A DNA stretch of 32,000 bases. It comes from an uncultured Erysipelotrichaceae bacterium (GTDB lineage: Bacteria; Bacillota_I; Bacilli_A; Erysipelotrichales; Erysipelotrichaceae). Positions 4,914 through 31,631 of this stretch are shown here, one piece after another (within the stretch, counting starts at the first letter, position 1; each line of letters starts with the position of its first letter). The notes beneath the pieces were generated by a model. It made no database searches and was not told where the DNA came from. It saw only the letters and a program-made list of their open reading frames with translations. A program made the translations under genes and the position numbers. The DNA lies in contig OW818668.1 of the NCBI GenBank assembly GCA_942493105.1, positions 270,001 to 302,000 on the forward strand, written 5' to 3'.

Positions 4914-5941
4914 GTGTGATTCTTTAGATTGAGTTCAAGCCTATGTTTATAATCTTGGATAACGTGGTTAGGAGATAAGATCTTGATTTGGTCACCGAAA
5001 GTAAAGATCCAGGCATAAAAAGTGGGGCTAGTTTGCACATTCAGTTTTACACTGAAATGTTTATCGTCATAAGGAATGACCTCGATCTGACGTCCATAAT
5101 GATCGATCACGGCTCCAATCAAATCATTCTTGATTTTTAACGTTACTATTTCTTGTTGTCCAGAAAACATATCAAATATCCCCTCAATATGTTTTTGCAG
5201 ATTCAAGGTTGAAGGGACAGGGATTACCTTGAATTCAGTTGAAGATACCTGTTCCATTTTATCAATACGATACGTTATAAATTCTTTGTGTTTATCATGA
5301 TAGGCAACCATATAATATTTATCATCATCCCATATTAAACAAACAGGATTAGCTGTATAAAAACCCCCGCTTTTTCTAAATACTTTTTCTTTTATCAAAC
5401 CGATATCATAGTATTTAAATTTGATTTGTACTTTATCGCTTATGGCTTGATGAATCGTATTGACTGAGACATATATTTTTTCATTATCTGTTTTTGGACG
5501 CTTTGTGATTAAAACCTGCTGTTGTAACTTTTGAGCCTCATAGACACTAACATTAGATGTGACCAGTTTACCAATCAGTTCTTGGCTTTTCTTTTCTGTG
5601 ATGAATTTTGCGGCCAATACAGCGTCTACCAGTAACTTTAGTTCAGGCAATTCGAATTGACGATTCCCGATGGAATATTGATTTTGCTTGGCACGATTGG
5701 TAATGATGTCGACGCCTGTGCTTTCCAAGAGCTTGATGTATTGATAAATGCTTTTTCGTTCAGTTGAAATGCCTTCTGTTGAAAGTTTGTTCATAATGTC
5801 TTTAACACTAAGCTGATGATTATCATCACTGTACTTCAATAAAATATCATAAACTTTTAAAAGCTTAAGTTGATTTTTACCTACATTACTTTGATGATAC
5901 TGATCATCTTCTTGATCTAAATTGCTATCTAGTGGTTCCAT
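4910..5941 (-). CDS. HTH + WYL domain transcriptional regulator (PafBC/BrxR/CapW-like architecture)
   Basis: 343 aa. N-terminal winged-HTH-like LKVYDILLKYSDDNHQLSVKDIMNKL...ERKSIYQYIKLLE. Central WYL-type region IKFKYYD...ANPVCLIWDDDKYYMVAYH...ITYRIDKM. C-terminal extension (WCX-like) ...FYAWIFTFGDQIKILSP. Confidence 0.8.
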   Translation of the reverse strand: MEPLDSNLDQEDDQYHQSNVGKNQLKLLKVYDILLKYSDDNHQLSVKDIMNKLSTEGISTERKSIYQYIKLLESTGVDIITNRAKQNQYSIGNRQFELPELKLLVDAVLAAKFITEKKSQELIGKLVTSNVSVYEAQKLQQQVLITKRPKTDNEKIYVSVNTIHQAISDKVQIKFKYYDIGLIKEKVFRKSGGFYTANPVCLIWDDDKYYMVAYHDKHKEFITYRIDKMEQVSSTEFKVIPVPSTLNLQKHIEGIFDMFSGQQEIVTLKIKNDLIGAVIDHYGRQIEVIPYDDKHFSVKLNVQTSPTFYAWIFTFGDQIKILSPNHVIQDYKHRLELNLKNHT

Positions 5942-9484: not shown

Positions 9485-9512
9485 AAAGAAAAACCCGTCT
9501 TAATTAACGGGT
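9485..9512 (-). terminator. rho-independent terminator after the GGDEF/HD-GYP gene
   Basis: ACCCGT (9493-9498) / 8-nt loop containing the TAA stop / ACGGGT (9507-9512). On the minus strand it is followed by TTTTTCTTT. Confidence 0.6.
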
Positions 9513-12064
9513 CTTTCGAGGAAACTATCGATGGTATATATATTAGTACGCGTTGGCTCAACGATGATCTTACCACTAGTGATGAGTTCAATGAAGATGT
9601 CAGTGAGTTCAGGATCAAACTGAGTTCCTGCATTTCGCTTGATTTCATTAAGTGCATAATCGATGTCTTGATTCATCTTATACTGACGATCTGAGGTAAT
9701 CGCATCGAAGGCATCTGCCAGAGCAATACATCTAGCACCGAAAGGAATACTTTCGCCAGCGATCTTACGGGGATAACCTTTTCCATCCCAACGTTCATGG
9801 TGACCAATAACACTTGGGATAACTTTAGAGAATGAAGGCAAATACTTTATGATGGTGATGGATAGATCCACATGTTTCTTCATGGTTTCATATTCATCTG
9901 TGGTTAAACGGCTTGTCTTAGTCAATACATTCTCAGGAACTCCAATTTTACCAATGTCATGAAGCAAAGAAGCCAGTCGTATGATTTCAACTTCAGAAGG
10001 TTTAGCGCCTGATGCTTCAGCAACAGCAGTGGCATATTTTGCAACACGTTGAGAGTGACCAAAAGTAACATGGTCTTTCGCATCGATGGTTGCAGTCAAG
10101 GCATAAACTGTAGCCAATTGATTTTCATCCAAAGCAATGCCTTCTTTAGAGTCTTCATTGATGGCTGAATTGAAGAGCACCGTCTTATTACGACCGCCTC
10201 GTTTAGCTTCAATCAAAGCCAAACCGGCATTCTTCAGCAACAATTTATCATCTGCAGCTTGCGAAGGATAGGTACATAATCCACAACTGACCGTCAGTTG
10301 TCGAGCTGGTTCATCAGGTGCAGAAACAGATGTTTGTTCAATGACGACACGTATCTTTTCCATGAGGTCATACGCTTTTTTAGTGTCTGTATTAGGTAAA
10401 ACCACCGCGAAGATATCTCCAACATAACGGCAAACTAAACCATTGTCTCCAACGACTTGCTTGATCTTAGCAGCAAGTTTTGTTAAAGCGGTATCTCCTG
10501 CATAGTGTCCATATAAATCATTGTATACATTAAACATGTCGATTCCAGTCAAAGCTAGAGATACATTATTGGTCTTGGATTGACTTGTGATACCTATCAA
10601 GTAATCCATGAAATAACGATGATTATAGGTATTGGTCAAAGCATCGATCGTGGCTTCTTCACGTGCTTTTTCAAACAAAATAGCATTAGCGATCGCAATA
10701 GAAGCAGTCATACATACCATGTTGATCTGATCTGTATGAGGAATATCACGAATGGAATGAGTATCTTTATGACACATCAAGACTAAACCAATCAGCTTTC
10801 CATTAGATTTCAATGGAACAGCAGTTTCAAACAAGATACCATTTAAAGCTCTGCGATCTTGGTCCCAAATGGTTTTAAAGAAGGCATTGGTATCAAGTGA
10901 TTTTCCATAGATCAATTCATCATATTGCTTAAACCACAACACAAACGGATGATTAACACTGATTTCAAATGAAACACTTTCTAGTTTACGAGACGAAGCA
11001 TAGAAAGCATAGTTCCCACTGACATCATCTTTTAAGAACAGATAGTTACGGGCATTACCACTCACATCAGATACAGCACTCATTAAACTATCGATGATCT
11101 TATTGAGTTCCAAGTTATTGGCAATCTGACGAGTAAAACTGGCAATACGTTCTTCTCTGACTTGTTCTTCTTTATAGAATATGTTGTTGACCAAAGTATA
11201 GATCACTTTAAACAAAGGTTGGAAGATCAACAAAGATACAAAGGTAACGATTAAGATAAACAAGTTGTTGTCTAGTCCAGTATTGAGTTGATTGAAGAAT
11301 GTAATCAAACCATTGACGGCAAAAATACTCCCAATGGTGATTGCAGTTAGTAACATGGTAAATATAACAGCTTTGGTGATAACAAACTTCAACTCAAGAA
11401 CACGGTTACGATAAATCGCATACATCATAAACAAGGATGCAATACTTCCCGCAAAGAAGTCAATAGGCCACTTCCCTATGACAGGTATTAAGTTAGCACC
11501 TATCCCAATGAAGATGATAAACAATGCGACCATGATGTTCTTTAGGCCACCCAAATATCTTGATTTACGATATTCTCGTTGCGCCAAGAACAAACAAGAC
11601 AACAATAAGGCGAAAATCAATACATAAGAGATATAGGCACCAATGCCCAAGGAATAGTTTAATTCAATAAAAGGTGACACTGGTATCTTGACCATGACTG
11701 CTGAGATGGTGGTAAAACCCATGATGTTGACGATTTGCATCGCAACTTCTAATATTCCCCACAATAATAATGAGAAATAACGCTTCATATGAATGAACAC
11801 GGTAAAGAAAATATAACCTGTGTACGGGATCATCATCAAAGCCGCAACCATTGTACGCTGCCAGAATAAGGTTCCTGGTGTTACATTAAGTTTCATCATC
11901 AAGGTTGAGAAGGACCATACAGTCATCGATGCCATCATCAGCATAAATGTTTTAATGGTCAAATCTTTTTTAGACAAAGCTAAAATAACGAAAATCGAGA
12001 ACGAGAAAATTAAGGATAGAATTGGGATACCCCAATAGATGGTCACATAGATTTGATCCATCAT
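9500..12064 (-). CDS. membrane sensor protein: multi-pass TM domain + GAF-like + degenerate GGDEF + HD-GYP (c-di-GMP phosphodiesterase type)
   Basis: About 290 aa of hydrophobic helices, then a GAF-like segment. The GGDEF-domain blocks are ALTNTYNHRYF, GIDMFNVYNDLYGHYAGD and RYVGDIFAVVLP, so the signature reads VGDIF instead of GGDEF. HD-GYP is intact: HDIGKIGVP and HHERWDGKGYP. Confidence 0.85.
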   Translation of the reverse strand: MMDQIYVTIYWGIPILSLIFSFSIFVILALSKKDLTIKTFMLMMASMTVWSFSTLMMKLNVTPGTLFWQRTMVAALMMIPYTGYIFFTVFIHMKRYFSLLLWGILEVAMQIVNIMGFTTISAVMVKIPVSPFIELNYSLGIGAYISYVLIFALLLSCLFLAQREYRKSRYLGGLKNIMVALFIIFIGIGANLIPVIGKWPIDFFAGSIASLFMMYAIYRNRVLELKFVITKAVIFTMLLTAITIGSIFAVNGLITFFNQLNTGLDNNLFILIVTFVSLLIFQPLFKVIYTLVNNIFYKEEQVREERIASFTRQIANNLELNKIIDSLMSAVSDVSGNARNYLFLKDDVSGNYAFYASSRKLESVSFEISVNHPFVLWFKQYDELIYGKSLDTNAFFKTIWDQDRRALNGILFETAVPLKSNGKLIGLVLMCHKDTHSIRDIPHTDQINMVCMTASIAIANAILFEKAREEATIDALTNTYNHRYFMDYLIGITSQSKTNNVSLALTGIDMFNVYNDLYGHYAGDTALTKLAAKIKQVVGDNGLVCRYVGDIFAVVLPNTDTKKAYDLMEKIRVVIEQTSVSAPDEPARQLTVSCGLCTYPSQAADDKLLLKNAGLALIEAKRGGRNKTVLFNSAINEDSKEGIALDENQLATVYALTATIDAKDHVTFGHSQRVAKYATAVAEASGAKPSEVEIIRLASLLHDIGKIGVPENVLTKTSRLTTDEYETMKKHVDLSITIIKYLPSFSKVIPSVIGHHERWDGKGYPRKIAGESIPFGARCIALADAFDAITSDRQYKMNQDIDYALNEIKRNAGTQFDPELTDIFIELITSGKIIVEPTRTNIYTIDSFLERPVN

Positions 12065-20851: not shown

Positions 20852-22109
20852 ATTGAGTTTGATCTTGAATTGGTTTTGGATCTTCTTGAGACATGATCTT
20901 CCATATCCCTTTATTGAAAAATATGGGGATGATCGCAAATAAAGCCAAAGTAGTACCAATAATGGCCAAGACACTCAAGTCATAGACCTCAGCAAGAAAA
21001 CCATAGCTCAACATCGACAAGGCAACTCCAGCAATTGAGAAAGAAGAAACAAAACCAAAGACAGTCGCTCTTTTATCTCTTGGGATTGCCAACATCATTG
21101 TGGCATTCAGCAAAGCATTTCCAATGACCATCATAAAGTCTCCTAAAAAGAAAAATACAGTCAGCCAAATAAAACCTTGGCCAAGTAATCCTGCGATCAC
21201 AAAGATCGTATTCAAAATAAAGGCACCAATAAAGATCGGCATCTTATGTTTAGGTTTGATTTTAAAGAATCCCAAAATTGCCAATGCCAATACAGCAGCC
21301 AACGAACTTAAGCCAATGAACAACCCATACTCTGTTAAGTTCATTCCTTTCATAGTCGCCAAAGGTAACATAAGTGCTGAATAACCCGATCCTACGAAAT
21401 TCGCAACCAACGCAGAAATCAACAACACATTCAAGCCTGGTGTCGCAATGGCATCTCTGGCGCCTTGGGCAACATCACCCAAGATCCGTTTAACAGTAAT
21501 CGTTTGGTTTAGTTCTTGTTTCAATGTTTTAGGCACATTGATGAATGTCTCTGTAAAGGCCGAAATTATGAAGGACAACCCATTAAGCAAAATCATGGGG
21601 CCAACTCCAAAGAAGGTCAACAAAGCTCCAGAAATACCCTTCCCAACGAAATCGATCAGGCTCATAGTGCCATGCGTCAATGATTGAGCACGAACCAAAT
21701 CGGAAGCAGGGACCAAATCAACGAAAACAGTTGTAGTTGCTGGTCGAAACATGACATTGCATATTGCAGCTACAAAAGCTGTAAACAAAACCATTTCTAC
21801 ACTCAAGTGACCTTGGAGGGCGACGAAACCAACAATCAGCATCAAGACTCCCCTAAAAGCATCCATTCCCACAATGACATTTTTCCGATTGATCCGGTCA
21901 ACAATGGCCCCAGTAAAAGGATTCAAAAACATCGCGACAAACATACTGATGGAAGACATGGTCCCCATGAGTGCGGTTGAACCAGTCTCGCGATACACCC
22001 AATAGCCAATCGCGATACTGTATAAAACATCCCCAAAAACACTGACCGCAGTTCCTTGCCACAGTAAGATAAAGTCTTTATTCCATAGTTTTTTAGGAGT
22101 TTGAGTCAT
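20850..22109 (-). CDS. MFS transporter (macrolide-efflux / EntS-like subgroup)
   Basis: 419 aa with 12 TM helices. N-terminal WNKDFILLWQGTAVSVFGD and loop GAIVDRINRKNV (the MFS D-R-x-x-R-R-like motif between TM2 and TM3). Confidence 0.85.
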   Translation of the reverse strand: MTQTPKKLWNKDFILLWQGTAVSVFGDVLYSIAIGYWVYRETGSTALMGTMSSISMFVAMFLNPFTGAIVDRINRKNVIVGMDAFRGVLMLIVGFVALQGHLSVEMVLFTAFVAAICNVMFRPATTTVFVDLVPASDLVRAQSLTHGTMSLIDFVGKGISGALLTFFGVGPMILLNGLSFIISAFTETFINVPKTLKQELNQTITVKRILGDVAQGARDAIATPGLNVLLISALVANFVGSGYSALMLPLATMKGMNLTEYGLFIGLSSLAAVLALAILGFFKIKPKHKMPIFIGAFILNTIFVIAGLLGQGFIWLTVFFFLGDFMMVIGNALLNATMMLAIPRDKRATVFGFVSSFSIAGVALSMLSYGFLAEVYDLSVLAIIGTTLALFAIIPIFFNKGIWKIMSQEDPKPIQDQTQ

Positions 22110-22480
22110 TTTTCGTTACCTTCGATCATTTAAACATAAATATAGTTAAATATTATAATAATATATTAATATTGTCAATATATTTATAAATATTATTAAT
22201 ATATTTATTCATTTATTTAAATTCATATTTCTAAATTCTTCATTATTATCTTACAATATCAATTATAAACCAAAAGATCGCTGCTGCAACGTCTCTGTTT
22301 GCACAATACAACTTATCGTGTGCAAACATTGGGTTCGCTCTTTTTGTCCTTTTTTATGGACGATATAATTTTTCACCTTTGTTTATCGTGTAACTTGTTA
22401 ATTGTATTGAAATTGGTATAAAAGACATCGATTTTAGTCCTTAAAAGTATAAAAACATCCTAAAAATCGGCTTGTTTCTA

Positions 22481-22507
22481 TTGCCAATATTGAAATAGTG
22501 CTATAAT
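22481..22507 (+). promoter_or_regulatory. putative extended -10 promoter of the pilus operon
   Basis: TGcTATAAT at 22499-22507. The best -35-like hexamer, TTGCCA at 22481-22486, has only a 15-nt spacer. It sits ~20 nt upstream of the riboswitch-like element. Confidence 0.4.
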
Positions 22508-22523
22508 AATTTTAGATTAGTTA

Positions 22524-22620
22524 ATATTCTGGTAAACCAGTTCGAAAGACTGGGGCACAAAGTTCGACATCTAAAGTTCTTCGGAACCATGATCGGTCAA
22601 TTGCGTAATTGAGTTTCTTT
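22524..22620 (+). promoter_or_regulatory. candidate c-di-GMP-I (GEMM-I) riboswitch with downstream weak hairpin / U-rich tract
   Basis: GGTAAACCAGTTC-GAAA-GACTGGGGCACAAAGTTCGACATCTAAAGTTC-TTCG-GAACCATGATCGG. Helix 22537-22543/22548-22553 is capped by a GNRA loop. The CACAAAG junction and a second helix (22565-22570/22589-22595) with a CUAAA bulge parallel the V. cholerae Vc2 aptamer as I recall it. Hairpin TCAATT-GCGT-AATTGA (22597-22612) is followed by GTTTCTTT. No covariance-model search was run. Confidence 0.55.
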
Positions 22621-22656
22621 ATCCTATAAGGAAAGGTTCTGGGTTTACATGATCTC

Positions 22657-23079
22657 ATGATCAAAACGAAGTTGGGGATGACCTTTGTTGAAGTGATTGT
22701 GGCGATGGCGATTTTCGCCATTTTAGTCGTTGCAATATTCCCTGCTTTCATGTTAGGCATCAAGCTTAATGCTGTATCAAAAGTTCAAGTTGAAACCGCA
22801 ACGGTTTCTCAAAATATAATGGAAGAAGTTTATTCATATTCGTTGACCAGTAATCTATCAACCACGATTACTGCTCTTTCAGCAACTTATCCAAGTCCAG
22901 TTACAGTTGGTTCTGTAACGACCTTAACAAGAACGACAGCTGACTATACGATCGTTATTGTATTTACAGCAAATTCACCACAAAATGGTATGACTAAAAC
23001 AAAAGTAACAGTTACCAAACTAAACAATCCTTATGGAGCTTTACCAGGGCAGGCTGAAACAATCCTGATTTTTAGGTAA
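22657..23079 (+). CDS. prepilin-type N-terminal cleavage/methylation domain protein (minor pilin)
   Basis: MIKTKLG|MTFVEVIVAMAIFAILVV has a short basic leader, Gly-1, Glu+5 and a hydrophobic helix. 140 aa, first gene of the pilus operon. Confidence 0.75.
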   Translation: MIKTKLGMTFVEVIVAMAIFAILVVAIFPAFMLGIKLNAVSKVQVETATVSQNIMEEVYSYSLTSNLSTTITALSATYPSPVTVGSVTTLTRTTADYTIVIVFTANSPQNGMTKTKVTVTKLNNPYGALPGQAETILIFR

Positions 23080-23082
23080 AAT

Positions 23083-23517
23083 ATGAAAAATAAAAAAGGA
23101 TTTACACTTATTGAATTAATTCTAGTAATGGCGGTCACGACAATCCTTTTAGGTACAATCGTTGCGATCTTCTTACAGAGCATAGATATGTATAAAACTG
23201 ATGAAACAAAATCAGCCAATCAATCCAGTTTGAACATGGTTTCCACAAGACTAGATGCATCTCTTAGAAAAGCTTCTGATGTGTATGTGGATGGTGATGG
23301 ATGTCATATTGTACACAGCACCTCTGAAGAAGTGTTCAATATCAACACCACCACAAAAACCATTTCGATTAATGGAGCTCATTTGACTGATCGTATCGCT
23401 GAGTTCACATGTTCAAATACCGCTAATGTGATTACCGTCTTTGTCAGGACCATCAATGACAGTAAGGGAAGTTCATTGACTTATAATTCGACCATCGTCC
23501 TTAGACAAGGAGAATAA
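23083..23517 (+). CDS. prepilin-type N-terminal cleavage/methylation domain protein (minor pilin)
   Basis: MKNKKG|FTLIELILVMAVTTILLG is a canonical class III signal. 144 aa, starting 3 nt after the previous stop. Confidence 0.8.
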   Translation: MKNKKGFTLIELILVMAVTTILLGTIVAIFLQSIDMYKTDETKSANQSSLNMVSTRLDASLRKASDVYVDGDGCHIVHSTSEEVFNINTTTKTISINGAHLTDRIAEFTCSNTANVITVFVRTINDSKGSSLTYNSTIVLRQGE

Positions 23518-23519
23518 AC

Positions 23520-25076
23520 ATGAAAACATTAAAGGAAAGATTAACACTTAATAAATCTGGCGTCGTATTGATGTCCGTTATGATCATTTTGTTGGTCATG
23601 ACCATCATCATATCTGGTGTCGTATTTATCACCGTAGCCAATCTTGAGAATTCTCAAAAAACAGCTTCTCATACAGAAACATTTTATGTTGCGGAAGGTG
23701 GAGTCAACTATCTGACCCAAACCTTTGAAAACTTCTATGCAACAGTTCCAACCACAACTTCAACCTCATTCTTTACTGCAATCGATAATTTTGCTGCGAC
23801 TTATCCAGTCAGCAATAAGCAAGTGGTTTCATTCTCAAACAACAAAGGTAAAACATCTGAAGCAAGAATTTGGATCACCCCATTAACGGTTACTGACCCT
23901 AGCGTCCATCGCTATCAGATCTTCTCTGATGGCTATATTGGCAACGTTAAACGCACATTATCAAGAATCATGGAAGTCAGCTATATCAATGGTGGATTGG
24001 CTTTCAAAGACGCTGTTTTAGCTGTAGGTAAACTAGCAGTTGGAGGAGCATATATTGATGGCAGTATTCAAACAACTTCAACCGCTACTCCTGCCATTAC
24101 CTTTTTAGGTGGTACAGTTGACGCAGTCTATATTCCAAGCGGAACTGTTCCGACGGATGTTGTCGATTCTTCAAACTATAACAACTCAATTCCAGGACTT
24201 GGGACTGCCGGGATTTATCAACAAGACCCGCCGACACTAAATCCGATAATTGTATTAACTGCTCCAGTGACAACTACCAAGTTAAAGAATTTCACTTTCA
24301 CAAGCGGCGGTAAAAGTTATCAAATCATTAATAATGGAAATTTCTCAATTACTTCTACAACCAATTTAAGTGTTCCAACAGTATATAATCTTGGAAATGA
24401 AAATCCAGGACAGTCAGTTTTCTATGTGCCCAATCTAAAAGTAACAGCATTAGCGCCTAATTTTACACTAGAAATCAACCGTGATATTACCTTAGTAACA
24501 GATACATTATGGTTAAATAATCAATTTAAAGTTACTGGCACAGGCAAACTAACGATATTTGTTAAACCTAGTGGCAGTACTTCATCAACGAATACAAAGT
24601 TACAAATCAATGCCAGTGGTATCGTAGGCAATCAATCAGATTCTACTAAGATGTCGATTTATGTAGGGGCTTTAACTTATAAGAGTGGTAGCTCACAATT
24701 GCCGTGGACACTTACATTAGGATCTGGCAGTTATTACTTCAGTTTGATTTGTGCCAATTTAAATATTGATTTGGCAGACTCCACACTAAGAGGAGCAGTG
24801 GCTACAAATGGCGCTAAAGTCTTTATCGGACCAAGCTCCGCTTCATCCGCTATCCTTCTGTATGCTCCATTGGCTGAAGTTCAAATGAAGTCATCATCTT
24901 CGAGTTTCTATGGGGCTATTGTTGCCGGAAGTTTTGTGAGTAGCACAGGTAACAGTCATCCTACTATTGTTTATTCACCGGCGGTGAACACATATATTCC
25001 AGTTGATGTTATCGATTTAACGGGTATAAATTCGCCACCAACCATAACCGTTGTAAAATCCCCTACTCAAGAATAA
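23520..25076 (+). CDS. large PilX/PilK-like pilus-associated protein (putative minor pilin or tip/adhesin subunit)
   Basis: 518 aa. N-terminus ...NKSGVVLMSVMIILLVMTIIISGVVFITVANLENSQKTA...FYVAEGG resembles the PilX N-terminal domain, with a Gly then a hydrophobic helix but no Glu+5. The rest is Ser/Thr/Asn/Val-rich. It lies directly after two minor pilin genes. Confidence 0.55.
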   Translation: MKTLKERLTLNKSGVVLMSVMIILLVMTIIISGVVFITVANLENSQKTASHTETFYVAEGGVNYLTQTFENFYATVPTTTSTSFFTAIDNFAATYPVSNKQVVSFSNNKGKTSEARIWITPLTVTDPSVHRYQIFSDGYIGNVKRTLSRIMEVSYINGGLAFKDAVLAVGKLAVGGAYIDGSIQTTSTATPAITFLGGTVDAVYIPSGTVPTDVVDSSNYNNSIPGLGTAGIYQQDPPTLNPIIVLTAPVTTTKLKNFTFTSGGKSYQIINNGNFSITSTTNLSVPTVYNLGNENPGQSVFYVPNLKVTALAPNFTLEINRDITLVTDTLWLNNQFKVTGTGKLTIFVKPSGSTSSTNTKLQINASGIVGNQSDSTKMSIYVGALTYKSGSSQLPWTLTLGSGSYYFSLICANLNIDLADSTLRGAVATNGAKVFIGPSSASSAILLYAPLAEVQMKSSSSSFYGAIVAGSFVSSTGNSHPTIVYSPAVNTYIPVDVIDLTGINSPPTITVVKSPTQE

Positions 25077-25106
25077 ATTCTGCTCAAGAAGAAAGGAGCT
25101 CATTAT

Positions 25107-26303
25107 ATGCCTTCTAAATTCCGGTTTACAGCTGTAGATGCTTCAGGAAACTCCGTCAGTGATACGCTTACTGCAGACTCCCCTGGACATCTCATGTCTC
25201 AGATTCATGCCAAGAACTTATTCTGTTTGGAATATGAAGAACTTGGTGTAAACAATGCTGTCGCAAGTAAGTTGAAGTTGAAGAGTTTGGTTATCTTCTG
25301 CCGACAGTTAGGAACCATGCTGAATGCCGGGATCCCAATCTCACAGGCTTTGAAGATGATTCAAGATAAGGCTGATAGTCCACGAGCCCGAAAAGTCTTC
25401 TCACAGCTCTATGAAGACGTTCAAAAAGGTAATTCGTTGTCTTTGGCAATGCAACTTCAACCTGGTATGTTCCCATCCTTGCTGGTCAATATGATCTTGG
25501 CTGGTGAAGCAGGTGGAACATTAGATTCAGCCATGAATCGTATGGCTGATCATTTCGATAAAGAAATGAAACTATCCAATAAAGTCAAAGCTGCTTTGGT
25601 TTATCCAATCATCTTGTCTGTATTAGCGGTATCCGTCGTCTTGATTCTAGTTACATTCGTCTTACCTACCATCACAAATATGTTTCCGGCAGAAGATATG
25701 CCAGCTACTACGCGTGTTTTGTTGGCGTTTAGTGACTTTGTGATCAATCAGTGGTATATCATTGTGATCTTCTTAATCGTATTCTTTGTGGGGGGAAGAT
25801 TTGCCCTTCAAATTCCTTCTGTTAAATATGAAGTGGATCGTTTCATGTTGACAATGCCCATCATAGGCAAACTGAATCGGACCATTTATTCTGCACGCTG
25901 CGCTCGTACCTTTGCTTCGCTTTACCTAAGCGGTGTACAAGCTCTCGATATGATTGAAATAACAGGCAAAGTTTTAGGAAACACCTACTTGGTTCGACGT
26001 TTTGATGAGGTCATCTCACTGGTCAGCCGTGGTGAATTCATCTCTAAAGCCATCTCGAATACTGAAGCTTTTGACCCCATGTTGGGATCGATGCTCTATA
26101 TTGGGGAAGAGTCTGGCTCATTAGGAGACATTTTACTTAAAACTGCTGATTATTTCGATGGGGAATCGGAAACAGCCCTGCAGCGTATGGTCGCATTGAT
26201 TGAACCCGTTATGTTGGTCGTCATGGGCATCATTATTGCCTTTGTCGTCATCTCGATCATGCAGCCGATCTTTACAATGTATAACTCTGTCGGGAATGTT
26301 TAG
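25107..26303 (+). CDS. pilC: type IV pilus platform protein PilC (GspF family)
   Basis: 398 aa with duplicated GspF-type domains: FCRQLGTMLNAGIPISQAL...LILAGEAGGTLD and FASLYLSGVQALDMIE...GEESGSLGDIL. Three TM segments. RBS AAAGGAG. Confidence 0.92.
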   Translation: MPSKFRFTAVDASGNSVSDTLTADSPGHLMSQIHAKNLFCLEYEELGVNNAVASKLKLKSLVIFCRQLGTMLNAGIPISQALKMIQDKADSPRARKVFSQLYEDVQKGNSLSLAMQLQPGMFPSLLVNMILAGEAGGTLDSAMNRMADHFDKEMKLSNKVKAALVYPIILSVLAVSVVLILVTFVLPTITNMFPAEDMPATTRVLLAFSDFVINQWYIIVIFLIVFFVGGRFALQIPSVKYEVDRFMLTMPIIGKLNRTIYSARCARTFASLYLSGVQALDMIEITGKVLGNTYLVRRFDEVISLVSRGEFISKAISNTEAFDPMLGSMLYIGEESGSLGDILLKTADYFDGESETALQRMVALIEPVMLVVMGIIIAFVVISIMQPIFTMYNSVGNV

Positions 26304-26326
26304 GAAAAGGAAAGAAGGAGCACTCT

Positions 26327-27226
26327 ATGCCACTATCTATTGAGATTCGTTTGAAACAGATGCAAGTAGTTCAGACCGCAGTGACTAAGAACCGGATCCA
26401 CTATAAGAAAACTTGTAGTGTCCCTCTGGAAGACGGTTGGATCGATGCTAAGGGGATTGCTGATCCAGCTGCTGTTACTTTTGCGCTTAATAAAGCACTT
26501 GAAGATAATGGCATCAAAGAAAAGAAATGTACTTTATGTATCAATAATCCCTCTGTTATATATCGTGAGTTGACCATCCCTAAAGTTGATGATAAACGTG
26601 TTGCTTTCGTCATAAGAAGCGAAATGATCGCTACATTAGACTTAACTCATGATTATATCGTAGACTTCGTCATTCTTGATGAAACAACTGAGGCACACAA
26701 GACACATGTTAGAGTTTTAGCGGTTGCTATTTCTGAAAAAGCACTCGCAAGCTACATTGATGTCTGTACCAAAGTTGGTTTGAAGGTAGATGTAGTTGAA
26801 ACCGCAACCACATCCGTTATAAAATTAGTAAGCAAATCTGATGTTTGCGAAGGAAATGATCCCACTCTCGTTGCCGATATCGAAAACGACATCATGAAAC
26901 TTTATTTATTTGAAAATAAGAGTTATATCTTGCTTCGTAATACAAAACTCAATAATGTCGATTCCAAGAATAATATTGAATGGATCTCAAACATTGAAGA
27001 TGACATCAATAAAATGATGCAGTTTCAATTCACCCGTCCTTCACACATTGGAATTAAACGCATTGTCATCTTTGGAGATCATCCATTGATTCCACAAATT
27101 AAAAATGCTGTTTCAGAAAGTTTGTCTGTAGAAACCTTGCTTTACCCAAAACCCGACTTTCTAAGTGGGAGAGAGGAAAGTTATCTGCCCTATCTTAATG
27201 CGATTGGCGCGGCGCTGAGGAAATAA
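26327..27226 (+). CDS. pilM: type IV pilus assembly protein PilM (actin-like ATPase fold)
   Basis: 299 aa cytoplasmic protein directly upstream of pilN/pilO. It has a PilM-like layout (...VLAVAISEKALASYIDVCTKVGLKV..VETATTS...). RBS AAGGAG. Call relies partly on position. Confidence 0.7.
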   Translation: MPLSIEIRLKQMQVVQTAVTKNRIHYKKTCSVPLEDGWIDAKGIADPAAVTFALNKALEDNGIKEKKCTLCINNPSVIYRELTIPKVDDKRVAFVIRSEMIATLDLTHDYIVDFVILDETTEAHKTHVRVLAVAISEKALASYIDVCTKVGLKVDVVETATTSVIKLVSKSDVCEGNDPTLVADIENDIMKLYLFENKSYILLRNTKLNNVDSKNNIEWISNIEDDINKMMQFQFTRPSHIGIKRIVIFGDHPLIPQIKNAVSESLSVETLLYPKPDFLSGREESYLPYLNAIGAALRK

Positions 27227-27228
27227 TC

Positions 27229-27792
27229 ATGAAAAAAGACAACATTAATCTACTTGATAATTATCTGCTATCAGAAAAGAAACGTAAAAATCAGGGTTCT
27301 AAATCATTGAATATCATTGCCGTCTTCTTGGTGACCGTTCTATTGCTGTCTGCTTACTCGTTATCCTTATTCCTTCAAGACAAGACACTAAAGGATACCA
27401 ATAATGAACTTGAAGCTTATGTAACCAATCCTTCGACTCTAGCTCAAATAAAAGACATTACTGTTAAGCAAAGACAGTTGACCGATCTTAAAGAAATCTT
27501 GGTTGAACTTAAATCTTTGAATGCTGCTTTCGGAGCTATGCCTGAGATTAACTCTGTCGTCATCGGTAAAATCAACTCAAGTTTACCTCCAGACACAAAA
27601 ATCTTAACCATCGATTTTGATGGACAATGGTTTACACTAAAAACGATTTCTGTGAATTACTTAAGACCTTCTGAATTTGCTCGCAATTTAAGAAACACAG
27701 GTTTCTTTGAAGAAGTTAATTACTATGGATATGACGAAGAAAACGGTAAATACATCGGCAATGTTTTAGTTGCGATGAAGGTAGGAGAATAA
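27229..27792 (+). CDS. pilN: type IV pilus assembly protein PilN
   Basis: N-terminal INLL motif (MKKDNINLLDNY) that in PilN binds PilM, a single TM helix (IIAVFLVTVLLLSAYSLSLFL) and a periplasmic-type alpha/beta domain. 187 aa. Confidence 0.7.
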   Translation: MKKDNINLLDNYLLSEKKRKNQGSKSLNIIAVFLVTVLLLSAYSLSLFLQDKTLKDTNNELEAYVTNPSTLAQIKDITVKQRQLTDLKEILVELKSLNAAFGAMPEINSVVIGKINSSLPPDTKILTIDFDGQWFTLKTISVNYLRPSEFARNLRNTGFFEEVNYYGYDEENGKYIGNVLVAMKVGE

Positions 27793-27793
27793 T

Positions 27794-28429
27794 ATGAAGG
27801 TAACAAGACGTGAAAGAAATTTATTAGCATTCTTGTTGTTGATTGGATCGATTGCTTTGGTCTATGTATTTGTCATCACACCTCTTCAAAATTCAATCGA
27901 TACACAGAAAAATTTAAACGCTAGTTTACAAGATCAAAAAACATTGATTGACGCTCAGCTTTTAGCTGGAACAGGTTTAAGTGCTAAAGTTCAAAAAGCC
28001 TTGGATGATGTAAATGTTGAATTCGCTAAGATTGAAGCACCAATCTCATCAGAAGAATTTGAATTGAGATTGCAGCCGATCTTGGTCATCAATGACATCA
28101 ATATTATTTCTTGGATCGTTAATGATCCCATCATCACAACTCCTAATCTTCCAACTTATGAAAATAATGGTTATGCATATAAACTTAAAGAACTTGTTAA
28201 TAATTACAATGGTAAAGGGACTCCGACCTCAACGATCCCTTCTTCCAATTCTGAATTGGTCATGACAACAGTCATCTTTACATTCAGCAGTTCATATGCA
28301 GACTATGTAGAAGTACTAGATGCCATAGTCGGTTGGAATTCCACTGTATTTGTATCTGCCACCAGCCGTGATAATACCACAGGCGAAGCAGTTATAGCGA
28401 TTGATTTCTATTCCATTGAAAAGCCATAA
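27794..28429 (+). CDS. pilO: type IV pilus assembly protein PilO-like
   Basis: 211 aa. N-terminal TM helix (LLAFLLLIGSIALVYVFVI), then a coiled-coil-like segment and a C-terminal domain. It sits after pilN with a 1-nt gap. The call is mostly positional. Confidence 0.55.
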   Translation: MKVTRRERNLLAFLLLIGSIALVYVFVITPLQNSIDTQKNLNASLQDQKTLIDAQLLAGTGLSAKVQKALDDVNVEFAKIEAPISSEEFELRLQPILVINDINIISWIVNDPIITTPNLPTYENNGYAYKLKELVNNYNGKGTPTSTIPSSNSELVMTTVIFTFSSSYADYVEVLDAIVGWNSTVFVSATSRDNTTGEAVIAIDFYSIEKP

Positions 28430-28493
28430 ACACCAGACATAAGAATTTATTCCACTAAGCATGGCAGACACAAATGTACAAGGAGCAATCATC

Positions 28494-30182
28494 GTGAAAT
28501 CATTACCCTTAGGTCAAATCTTACTTGAAGAAAAGGTCATTACTGAACAAGAACTGAACCAAGCCTTGGAACAACAAAAAGTATCCAAGAAACGTTTAGG
28601 GGCGGTCATTATCGACATGGGCATCGTAGAAGAAGTTGACATTATGAAAGCGTTGGCAAGACGCTTAAAAGTCGATTTCTTAGAAAACCCTCTGTTTTCC
28701 ATTGATTTAGAAACCGTTAAGTTGGTTCCTGAATCATTTGCGAGAAAACATAAAATCGTTCCTCTGAATATTCGTGAAGGACATTTAAACATTGTCACCA
28801 ACGATCCACTGAACTTTACCTGTTTTGAAGACATCAGTATGATCACGTCGATGGAAGTTCAAACTGTTTTATCGACAGAAACTGAAATCGACAAATGTAT
28901 CGACAGAGTGTATTCAAAACGAAATGCGGATGAAATCATCGAAGATATTCGTTCTGAATATGGTGAAATCAACATTGAAATCAATCCTGAACGAGATGAT
29001 CAAGCTGCGATCGTAGAACGCGTAGATTCTGCACCAATCGTAAAACTGGTCAATTCATTGGTTCAAGAAGCCTATCAAGAAAATGCATCAGATATCCATA
29101 TTGAACCTGAAGAAAGCCATACCAGAGTTCGTTTTAGAATCGATGGAGACTTGGTTGAACATTCAACTTTCTCAAAAGACATTCATGGTTTATTAACGAC
29201 CCGCATTAAAATCATCAGCGGAATGAACATCGCTGAAAAACGTTTACCTCAAGACGGAAGCTTCAATGTCCGTACAGACTATATTCATGTCGATATGCGT
29301 GTTTCCAGTTTACCTACACCTTATGGTGAAAAAATCGTTATGCGTCTGTTGGGAGCCAACAGAGCCATAGATTATGATATGAGAGCTTTGGGTTTATCCA
29401 ATCATACATTGAATCTACTTGAAAAATCCTTGCATATCCCTAATGGGATCATATTGGTTACAGGTCCTACCGGTTCTGGTAAAACAACGACCTTGTATTC
29501 GATGTTGTCCAGCATCACCAAACCTACCCTCAATATCGTAACTGTAGAAGATCCTATTGAACGTCGTTTCCAAAATATCACTCAAGTTCAAGTCAATCCA
29601 CGTGCTGGTTTGACCTTCGCATCTGGCTTAAGATCCATCCTTCGTCAAGATCCGGATGTCATCATGGTTGGGGAAATTCGAGATGCTGAAACAGCCGAAA
29701 TCGCCATCAGAGCCGCTATTACTGGTCACTTGGTCTTATCCACTGTCCATACCAATGATGCCTTATCTACGATCGTTAGATTGACAGATATGGGCATTGA
29801 ACCGTATTTGGTTGCTTCATCCGTCAAATGTGTCGTATCTCAACGTTTAGTCAAACGGATCTGTCCGCATTGTAAAGAAAAGACAGAAGCCAGTCATAGT
29901 GATAATCTCTTGCTTCAAACTCAATTGACTCATGTCTATGCCGGTAAAGGTTGTCAACAATGCAAATTCACAGGCTATATGGGACGTACTCCAGTTCATG
30001 AAGTCATGATCGTAGATTCACACTTCGAAGATCTCATCACACACAGAGCTTCTATGGAAGATCTAAGAGCCTATGCCAAAGAAAAGAAGATGAGAATGCT
30101 TAAAGATGAAGTCTCTGATTTGATTGAAACAGGAGTGACGACCGTCGAAGAAGGCTTACGCATTCTGTATTCTGTCGATTAA
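28494..30182 (+). CDS. pilB: type IV pilus extension ATPase PilB (GspE family) with N-terminal MshEN/T2SSE_N-type domain
   Basis: Walker A GPTGSGKTTT, Asp/His boxes, Walker B ILRQDPDVIMVGEIRD, and a tetracysteine CPHC...CQQC. I prefer GTG 28494 (8 nt after AAGGAG at 28480-28485) over the track ATG at 28461, which has no RBS. Confidence 0.92.
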   Translation: MKSLPLGQILLEEKVITEQELNQALEQQKVSKKRLGAVIIDMGIVEEVDIMKALARRLKVDFLENPLFSIDLETVKLVPESFARKHKIVPLNIREGHLNIVTNDPLNFTCFEDISMITSMEVQTVLSTETEIDKCIDRVYSKRNADEIIEDIRSEYGEINIEINPERDDQAAIVERVDSAPIVKLVNSLVQEAYQENASDIHIEPEESHTRVRFRIDGDLVEHSTFSKDIHGLLTTRIKIISGMNIAEKRLPQDGSFNVRTDYIHVDMRVSSLPTPYGEKIVMRLLGANRAIDYDMRALGLSNHTLNLLEKSLHIPNGIILVTGPTGSGKTTTLYSMLSSITKPTLNIVTVEDPIERRFQNITQVQVNPRAGLTFASGLRSILRQDPDVIMVGEIRDAETAEIAIRAAITGHLVLSTVHTNDALSTIVRLTDMGIEPYLVASSVKCVVSQRLVKRICPHCKEKTEASHSDNLLLQTQLTHVYAGKGCQQCKFTGYMGRTPVHEVMIVDSHFEDLITHRASMEDLRAYAKEKKMRMLKDEVSDLIETGVTTVEEGLRILYSVD

Positions 30183-30190
30183 GGGGACCC

Positions 30191-31243
30191 ATGCTTCAAG
30201 AGATCCTAATAAAGGCACAAAAAGAGTCTTGTTCAGACATTCATATCTCAGGAAATGAGAAGGTCTTATTCAGAAAAGATGGACGTCTCCTATCCTATTC
30301 AAGTGATATAATAAGTTCAGAGCAGGCTCTATCCGTAGTTCACGAATTGTTAAGTACGGAAGCCTTTGAAACCTATACAAAAGGTCATGATATCGATGCT
30401 GCTTATACAGATTCAGAAATGAATCGATATCGACTCAACATCTACCGTCAGCGCGGTGTACCCGCAATAGCGATCCGTTTACTTAGAAAAACGATCCCGA
30501 CGCTTGAAGAACTCAAGCTTCCTGAAGTCCTAAGTACATTGGCAATGCTTCCAAGAGGCCTCGTATTACTCACAGGTCCTACCGGAAGCGGTAAGTCCAC
30601 CACCCTAGCCGCTATGATTGATCATATCAATCGTAATAGATCTGTTCACATTTTAACTCTAGAGGATCCTGTAGAATACATTCATACTCCCAAAATGGGT
30701 ATGATCCATCAACGAGAGATCCATACAGACGTAACCGACTTCGCGTCAGCCTTACGTTCTGCACTTAGAGAAGACCCGGATGTGATCTTGGTAGGAGAAA
30801 TGCGCGATCATGAAACGATCGCCTTGGCTCTGACTGCCGCGGAAACCGGGCACCTCGTATTGTCCACCCTACACACTACCGGGGCTGCCAGTACGATCGA
30901 TCGTATTATTGATGTATTCCCACCCCACCAACAAGGGCAAATCAGAACTCAATTGGCATCATCCCTACAGGGTGTTGTCTCTCAAGATCTGGTTCCACTC
31001 GAAGGTGGCGGTCGAATTGCCGCACATGAGATCATGATCATGACTGATGCGATAGGCAATTTGATCCGCGAAAACAAAATCGTTCAGATCAACTCTGCGA
31101 TTCAAACCGGCATGCGGATGGGCATGTGCACCCTGGACGGATCCCTGGCTAACTTGATCCGAAAAAATCTGATCTCTGTGGATACAGCATTGGAGTACAC
31201 CAACAATCCTGAGGCGTTGAAACGTTTACTCCACAACTACTAA
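30191..31243 (+). CDS. pilT: type IV pilus retraction ATPase PilT
   Basis: 350 aa. SDIHI..., RYRLNIYRQRG, LLTGPTGSGKSTT, ILTLEDPVEY, LREDPDVILVGEMRD, GHLVLSTLHT and the AIRNLIRE-like GNLIRENK block match PilT rather than PilB, with no N-terminal domain and no Zn motif. Confidence 0.92.
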   Translation: MLQEILIKAQKESCSDIHISGNEKVLFRKDGRLLSYSSDIISSEQALSVVHELLSTEAFETYTKGHDIDAAYTDSEMNRYRLNIYRQRGVPAIAIRLLRKTIPTLEELKLPEVLSTLAMLPRGLVLLTGPTGSGKSTTLAAMIDHINRNRSVHILTLEDPVEYIHTPKMGMIHQREIHTDVTDFASALRSALREDPDVILVGEMRDHETIALALTAAETGHLVLSTLHTTGAASTIDRIIDVFPPHQQGQIRTQLASSLQGVVSQDLVPLEGGGRIAAHEIMIMTDAIGNLIRENKIVQINSAIQTGMRMGMCTLDGSLANLIRKNLISVDTALEYTNNPEALKRLLHNY

Positions 31244-31280
31244 TCCTAGAATCACAATTAAACTTCAAAAAGGAGAACAA

Positions 31281-31631
31281 ATGAAGAAATTAAACAAAAA
31301 AGGGTTTACACTTATTGAATTGATCGTCGTTATCGCTATCTTGGCTATCTTGGCTGCGATCTTGATTCCTGCGATTACTGGTTATATTACAAAGGCTGAA
31401 CAAGGCAGAGATTCTGCTAACTGCCGCTCATCCTACTCGCAAGCAGCAATGTCAGTTATGCTTGAAGCCGATCCATTAGTACCTGCTTCAGGTGCTGTAG
31501 TTAGTGGATTAACAATTACATATACTGTTGATACAACCAACAATGTTATTAATGCTGGTTTCAAATGTGTTGGTGCTACTGGTACATATACCGCTCCAGA
31601 CTTTAAACGCACTGCTACACCAGCTCCTTGA
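31281..31631 (+). CDS. pilA: type IV major pilin
   Basis: MKKLNKKG|FTLIELIVVIAILAILAAILIP is a canonical prepilin signal. 116 aa with two Cys (ANC, FKC) that could form the C-terminal disulfide. Strong RBS AAAGGAG, followed by a terminator. Confidence 0.85.
   Translation: MKKLNKKGFTLIELIVVIAILAILAAILIPAITGYITKAEQGRDSANCRSSYSQAAMSVMLEADPLVPASGAVVSGLTITYTVDTTNNVINAGFKCVGATGTYTAPDFKRTATPAP

Follow-up and report, generated by a model that had tools for sequence, protein, structure and literature searches.

Class I riboswitches for cyclic diguanylate (c-di-GMP), the GEMM-I RNAs, have been reported next to the pilus-assembly genes pilM, pilO, pilQ and pulF since 2007 (PMC1950547). They are defined by a 2-bp and a 6-bp stem on either side of a 3-nt loop, by a GNRA loop and an AAA linker and, where the GNRA loop is GAAA, by a tetraloop receptor (PMC1950547). 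In Vibrio cholerae Vc2, the type example of Rfam family RF01051, G20's Watson-Crick edge recognises the G-alpha base of the ligand (PMC6140456), C92 forms a Watson-Crick pair with the G-beta base (PMC4744006, PMC6140456), A47 is a ligand-contact residue (PMC4744006), and the interhelical pair C44:G83 is conserved universally (PMC4744006, PMC6140456). The GEMM-Ib RNAs that sense cyclic GMP-AMP (cGAMP) have A instead of G at Vc2 position 20 (PMC6140456). In the Clostridioides difficile switch Cdi-2-4, c-di-GMP permits read-through and raises pilus expression (PMC6200980). Here we analyse a predicted c-di-GMP-I riboswitch that precedes the type IV pilus genes of an uncultured Erysipelotrichaceae bacterium, in the leader of their operon, and compare it with these systems. 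The window is a 32-kb stretch of DNA (contig OW818668.1, positions 270,001 to 302,000), and all positions without a locus name are counted from its first nucleotide.

A predicted GEMM-I aptamer leads the pilus operon

The whole window was scanned against 4227 Rfam families at curated thresholds, and positions 22100-22720 were scanned permissively at E<=10. RF01051 (c-di-GMP-I/GEMM-I) is the sole family above its curated threshold in the 32 kb. It matches 22521-22608 on the forward strand with 58.7 bits, where the gathering score is 35 (E 3.3e-9 over the whole window and 4227 families), spans model positions 1-87 of 87 and contains no non-canonical pairs; RF01051 itself is also the best-scoring member of its clan at the site. 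The match is far beyond chance, and the observation is real. An initial annotation had proposed a GEMM-I riboswitch here from the letters of the sequence. The leader sequence that it quoted was found in place by reading, and the Infernal search with RF01051 upholds the proposed identity with a full-length match, 24 bits over the curated threshold. The c-di-GMP-II model (RF01786) gave no match at its gathering threshold in the whole window and none in 22100-22720 at E<=10 with permissive filters, consistent with the class I call. The permissive scan added two weak, unrelated matches; a class II c-di-GMP aptamer or another Rfam family at the site was rejected, as nothing credible came up at E<=10. 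Thus, 22521-22608 (functional core about 22531-22604) is almost certainly a GEMM-I aptamer in the leader of the type IV pilus operon. At the level of sequence, the leader agrees with every RF01051 criterion except the P1 helix, which lies outside the Rfam model.

Related loci were collected through the proteins of the operon. The window's PilC found six loci in metagenome-assembled genomes (MAGs) of uncultured Erysipelotrichaceae, at 54-95% identity, and a search with the first prepilin gene added 18 further protein clusters, for most of which contigs were taken into the leader set. A metagenome pattern scan returned one locus whose leader was the same as that of other loci in the set, and what further look-ups yielded were close or truncated leaders only. 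Each of the 20 related loci in which the leader is included passes the RF01051 gathering threshold, at 42-69 bits. These 20 represent 13 distinct leaders from Erysipelotrichaceae MAGs and metagenomes, the set to which the conservation counts below refer.

Architecture and ligand-contact positions

The first hairpin (P2 in crystal nomenclature) lies at 22532-22558 (forward strand, as are all elements of the leader), as placed by both the covariance-model alignment and RNAalifold. In the model alignment its outer stem is formed by two base pairs, G22532:C22558 and U22533:A22557, followed by an AAA internal loop (22534-22536) and an inner stem of six base pairs (22537-22553; CCAG(u)UC-GAAA-GACUGG) with an inserted U at 22541 and a GAAA tetraloop at 22544-22547. 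The sequence GGGCACAAAG occupies 22553-22562, where the junction reads GGC-AC-AAAG; its CACAAAG (22556-22562) is invariant in the 13 leaders. The second hairpin (P3) spans 22561-22602, with 22561-22564 and 22566-22571 paired to 22591-22593 and 22596-22602. It carries a tetraloop-receptor-like bulge composed of UAAA (22572-22575) and CAU (22588-22590), and an inner GUUC-UUCG-GAAC hairpin at 22576-22587. UCUAAAG...CCAUGA in P3 is aligned to the consensus guCUAAgg...cuAuGa, and docking of the tetraloop is predicted. As aligned, the architecture is that published for GEMM (PMC1950547). Both the RF01051 alignment and direct reading agree with the initial annotation on the P2 hairpin, its GAAA tetraloop, the junction and the inner hairpin. 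The second helix given there (22565-22570 with 22589-22595) has to be redrawn, as P3 in the alignment is longer and in another register.

We mapped the Vc2 positions by means of the Rfam consensus alignment and the published numbering, rather than by a direct alignment to Vc2. The G20 equivalent is G22531, unpaired at model position 11 and located just 5' of the paired GC. The interhelical pair C44:G83 corresponds in the model alignment to C22556 and G22595. A22559, the first A of the CAAAG junction, directly follows the C46 equivalent C22558 and takes the place of A47. C22604, the first C of the consensus gCC, is assigned as the C92 equivalent because it comes nine positions 3' of the G83 equivalent, the same distance as in the Vc2 numbering. 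The ligand-pairing C that the initial annotation was unable to locate can therefore be placed. C22556, A22559, G22595 and C22604 are invariant in the 13 leaders, and the G20 position is G in 12 of them and A in one, L010. By alignment, G22531, A22559 and C22604 are the predicted standard c-di-GMP contact triad.

At the base of P2, the initial annotation had read U22533 and A22557 as a compensatory change from C:G to U:A. The two positions do pair in the model alignment. The U:A pair is found in all 13 leaders and is for this reason a trait of the lineage, with no compensation visible within the set. A U:A pair near the pocket, in place of a highly conserved C:G, raises the question of whether the GEMM-I fold here senses another cyclic dinucleotide (for example 3',3'-cGAMP) or is bispecific, and the A of L010 at the G20 position, which is the GEMM-Ib signature, points the same way. 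We consider this improbable. The window and the other 12 leaders retain the G, the A47 and C92 equivalents are intact, and wild-type Vc2, which has G20, discriminates against cGAMP (PMC6140456). Also, RF01051 is the top-scoring clan member, a GGDEF enzyme and an MshEN receptor are encoded nearby (below), and L010 is low-scoring (42 bits) and comes from one short-read assembly.

L010 (1383-1470, Logan SRR30681629) reads CCUUAGUAAAC around the G20 position, and UCGAAAG replaces UCUAAAG in its receptor. Natural variation in specificity, decay of the copy or an assembly error could each account for it.

RNAalifold applied to a plain MAFFT alignment of the 13 leaders recovered both helices without guidance. 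Standard pairs make up 98.6% of cells across the aptamer, and six pairs have changed on both sides, four of them among the six inner pairs of P2 and two in P3. None of 500 shuffles reached the observed covariation score or the observed number of pairs changed on both sides, and slid registers fall to 15-44% paired. On these alignments, every orthologous leader that was recovered has kept the aptamer, with compensatory changes. The distance from its 3' end to the AUG of the first prepilin gene is 44-49 nt in every ortholog. That the match is a relic of an aptamer or due to chance, and has no regulatory role, might be argued from the missing P1, from the weak expression platform described below, and from locus L003, where the aptamer persists despite the loss of the three pilin genes behind it. 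Such a reading is nonetheless extremely unlikely given an E value of 3e-9, compensatory changes that preserve both helices, invariant contact residues, and a position and spacing that are fixed in every ortholog.

In L003 (5629-6002, JAAXXT010000014.1), the three prepilin genes have been lost behind an intact aptamer (63 bits). Behind the aptamer come a pilin 5'-end remnant with a broken frame, then, at about 5806-5826, GCGAAGGUUUUUCGC-UUUUUU, which resembles a terminator, and finally pilC.

Promoter, pilus operon and c-di-GMP context

An extended -10 element, TGcTATAAT, can be read at 22499-22507 (+). The promoter noted in the initial annotation is thus present, and it is kept in all 13 leaders, where TGnTATAAT is always preceded by AAAT(A/G)G. 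Transcription is inferred to start near 22514. A -35-like TTGCCA at 22481-22486 lies only 15 nt 5' of the -10 element, a non-canonical spacing. The aptamer sits between this conserved promoter and the first gene of the pilus operon, a position within the 5' untranslated region that suits a family placed ahead of genes for environment, membrane or motility functions.

We identified the downstream genes from the open reading frames (ORFs) of the window and the Pfam domains of their products (N_methyl, PilX_N, T2SSF, PilM_2, PilN, T2SSM, MshEN with T2SSE, and T2SSE), which bear out the type IV pilus operon recognised in the initial annotation. The operon (22657-31631, +) lies downstream of the riboswitch. 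It begins with three prepilin-like genes (22657-23079, 23083-23517 and 23520-25076), followed by genes encoding PilC (25107-26303), PilM (26327-27226), PilN (27229-27792), a PilO-like protein (27794-28429), an MshEN-bearing PilB (28461-30182), PilT (30191-31243) and a pilin (31281-31631), all on the forward strand.

The MshEN domain of PilB (residues 16-68) is composed of two 24-residue motifs, PLGQILLEEKVITEQELNQALEQQ and RLGAVIIDMGIVEEVDIMKALARR, separated by a 5-residue spacer. The second is an exact fit to the published relaxed motif, and the first fails only at the [GAS] position (PMC5013675). A candidate c-di-GMP synthase/phosphodiesterase is encoded about 10 kb upstream of the riboswitch (9500-12064, -): this 854-aa protein has seven N-terminal transmembrane segments, a GGDEF domain and an HD_5 domain of the HD-GYP type. 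Based on these two proteins, the organism probably makes and degrades c-di-GMP and has a protein-level receptor for it in the same pilus machine. The pilus operon may therefore receive c-di-GMP input twice, through RNA (the riboswitch) and through protein (MshEN of PilB).

We regard it as very probable that the leader riboswitch exerts functional c-di-GMP-responsive control over the pilus operon. A class I c-di-GMP riboswitch in the pilus-operon leader, transcribed from the extended -10 promoter at 22499-22507, is in our judgement a likely account of the locus and its best explanation overall.

A strand-swap hairpin as candidate expression platform

In the published layout of a GEMM ON switch, which 78 of 322 GEMM instances show, a terminator stem overlaps the second hairpin on its 3' side (PMC1950547). 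In the window, folds and conservation point to an alternative strand-swap hairpin, UCAAUU-GCGU-AAUUGA (22597-22612), as a candidate attenuator stem. It is the only conserved element in competition with the aptamer: its stem is built from the P3 3' strand and its loop contains C22604, and the two structures therefore cannot coexist. The hairpin forms in most unconstrained minimum-energy folds. Across the 13 leaders, 94.9% of its cells are paired in register, and one pair is compensated (U:A to C:G, in L003, which keeps the hairpin through a CC..GG base). In nascent RNA that ends at the 3' side of the hairpin, the aptamer and hairpin folds are only about 0.4-4.6 kcal/mol apart in 12 of 13 leaders (all but L010); modelled folds so nearly isoenergetic would provide the balance that a ligand-tipped switch needs. 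The stem is followed by a U-rich run read from the sequence, UUUCUUUAU (22614-22622), a candidate terminator U-tract. Its UU at 22619-22620 is invariant and T22618 nearly so, and the leaders have 3-7 U in the 9 nt after the stem.

A switch could work from these parts as follows. With c-di-GMP bound, P3 (22561-22602) and C22604 would be locked in the aptamer. Without ligand, the tail AAUUGA (22607-22612) would capture the P3 3' strand UCAAUU (22597-22602), and the resulting small hairpin and the U-run at 22614-22622 would attenuate transcription before the first pilin gene. The element would then be an ON switch, with high c-di-GMP giving more pilus transcripts, which agrees with the MshEN domain for c-di-GMP binding on PilB of the same operon. 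For an OFF switch, a terminator of its own would have to lie downstream, and the terminator scan of the window found none. On these folding models, we give an ON switch that acts via the strand-swap hairpin and U-run at most an even chance.

Several observations count against this mechanism. The hairpin has six mostly A-U pairs and a free energy of only -1.5 to -3.5 kcal/mol across the leaders. In the window it has one G-C pair and -2.6 kcal/mol, the U-run starts 1 nt after it, and a consensus terminator scan did not call it. The published criterion for an intrinsic terminator is a strong, G+C-rich hairpin directly followed by four or more U (PMC1950547). The geometry here fits and the strength does not. 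An extended terminator stem that uses CGG (22594-22596) was tried and rejected, as it reached at best only -0.5 to -3.4 kcal/mol. In five leaders the U-run begins 4-5 nt past the stem. Against shuffled tails, the complementarity between tail and P3 gave z of about -1.4 per sequence, with 3-36% of shuffles as good, and the hairpin is modestly supported, mostly by conservation among related sequences and by the one compensated pair. A GAAAGG element close to the pilin gene (below), conserved in all leaders, is unexplained by it.

A closing P1 helix is not apparent either. P1 is seen in crystal structures, is absent from the Rfam model and is reported to be intrinsically unstable in natural members (PMC9262584). 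We searched for duplexes that the 5' leader could form with the 12 nt or 40 nt following C22604, and the best were no better than those of shuffled leaders (mean z +0.45 and +0.51), which also weighs against our account of the locus. Several P1 pairings spotted by eye are not kept across orthologs, and just one possible flanking pair, found by inspection, occurs in 10 of 13 leaders. The initial annotation's caveat that no convincing P1 could be drawn stands, given that the duplex searches produced none above shuffled controls.

The ribosome-binding region and a translational read-out

A real c-di-GMP-I riboswitch could also control translation or the fate of the mRNA, and might then be an OFF switch. 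The tail and U-run, released when the ligand binds, would help to occlude the region of the ribosome-binding site (RBS) of the first pilin gene; in another version, the switch would alter how stable the RNA is or how accessible it is to Rho, instead of intrinsic termination. The short and fixed distance of 44-49 nt from aptamer to AUG would suit such a read-out, as would the lack of a credible strong terminator. Moreover, the tested C. difficile class I switches are all OFF (PMC6200980), which speaks for this alternative and against the ON switch.

The sequence before the pilin AUG offers a possible target. All 13 leaders have a Shine-Dalgarno (SD)-like GAAAGG that lies 18-22 nt 5' of the AUG, and the conserved U-run can pair with it. 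In folds, a second small hairpin, UUUCUUUAU-CCU-AUAAGGAAA (22614-22634), pairs the U-run with the SD-like AAGGAAAGG (22628-22636). This pairing of GAAAGG with the U-run forms in both modelled states. Partition-function models of the 13 leaders, free versus aptamer-locked, showed no consistent change in the accessibility of the SD-like element or the AUG, and ligand-dependent masking was rejected. The tail as an anti-RBS was likewise discarded: complementarity between the tail and the region before the AUG is appealing by eye in several leaders, but is at shuffle level (mean z -0.16). RNAalifold detected no conserved structure downstream of the aptamer in the 13 leaders. The SD-like element is also farther from its AUG than the working spacing of other genes in the window, which have AAGGAG 6-9 nt upstream of their starts, and an OFF sign would oppose the MshEN input on PilB. 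We therefore hold control of translation or mRNA fate to be rather unlikely.

An upstream start or coupled mini-ORF after GAAAGG was considered and dropped, as there is no conserved in-frame start and L006 has CAG for AUG. The window itself has a mini-ORF, AUG AUC UCA UGA (22649-22660), whose stop overlaps the pilin start (AUGA); it is probably fortuitous.

Returning to the ON reading, the lineage may have a minimalist version of such a switch, with no P1 and a 6-bp, A-U-rich decision hairpin too weak to terminate alone. This would imply attenuation assisted by factors of the NusA/NusG type, or an unrecognised read-out through the U-run/GAAAGG hairpin. We offer this as a speculative and somewhat doubtful proposal.

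Features upstream of the promoter

In the orthologs, a -35-like TTGNNN hexamer lies 14-15 nt upstream of the -10 element, compared with the canonical 17 nt. The intergenic region between the divergent major facilitator superfamily (MFS) transporter gene and the pilus operon contains an inverted repeat, TGTCC-N8-GGAC(G/A) (22345-22363), whose arms are kept in L006, L004 and L023 and whose loop is variable. This candidate operator or small hairpin lies about 140 nt 5' of the pilus promoter. Directly upstream of the divergent MFS gene, the window and L006 share an extremely A+T-rich block (22130-22260) in which AATATTATTAATAT-like units are repeated.

Comparison with known systems

This analysis adds a well-supported c-di-GMP target, type IV pili, in the Erysipelotrichaceae; our literature search found no paper linking this family to c-di-GMP riboswitches. 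If the minimalist ON reading is true, c-di-GMP would control both pilus gene expression and pilus assembly in one operon. The leader is compact, with about 135 nt from promoter to AUG, an unusually weak competing hairpin and no evident P1, and could be used to test the minimal needs of an expression platform.

The aptamer closely resembles Vc2. Both have two adjacent hairpins with a CAAAG junction: the first has 2-bp and 6-bp stems around an AAA loop and a GAAA tetraloop, and the second carries a receptor-like CUAA...AUGA bulge. The equivalents of G20, A47, C92 and C44:G83 are all in the window (PMC1950547, PMC4744006, PMC6140456). Unlike Vc2 and the RF01051 consensus, the window has U:A for the conserved C:G at the base of the first hairpin and an inserted U in the 6-bp stem. 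The outer part of its second helix is rich in A-U and G-U pairs, and a closing P1 is not detectable.

The pilM switch of Geobacter metallireducens, a GEMM-Ib riboswitch for 3',3'-cGAMP and a transcriptional ON switch, has the same fold upstream of type IV pilus assembly genes. Its platform is short, and the competing stem there overlaps the aptamer in its 3' part and ties up the C that pairs with the ligand, so that aptamer and terminator are mutually exclusive (PMC9262584), a layout to which we liken that of the window. In contrast to pilM, the window has G and not A at the specificity position, its competing hairpin is far weaker (about -2.5 kcal/mol), its host belongs to the Erysipelotrichaceae, a Gram-positive lineage, and its function is predicted.

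Two further comparisons come from C. difficile, a Firmicute. Cdi-2-4 (pilA1) is likewise a c-di-GMP riboswitch that leads a type IV pilus cluster, but its aptamer is of class II, with an unrelated fold, and the window is without a class II match. The class I switches of the same species (for example Cd1/Cdi-1-3 upstream of flgB) share the aptamer class and come from a related phylum. They work as OFF switches, by means of an antiterminator and of a terminator that lies separately downstream (PMC6200980, PMC9262584), whereas the terminator scan of the window found no such terminator.

An association of GEMM with pilus genes is not new, since it was reported in 2007 and the Geobacter pilM switch is well studied (PMC1950547, PMC9262584). 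The finding confirms more than it surprises, as the aptamer class, the ligand and the connection with pilus genes were known before. What is new here is the host lineage, the pairing of a class I aptamer with type IV pili in a relative of the Firmicutes, and an unusually minimal platform.

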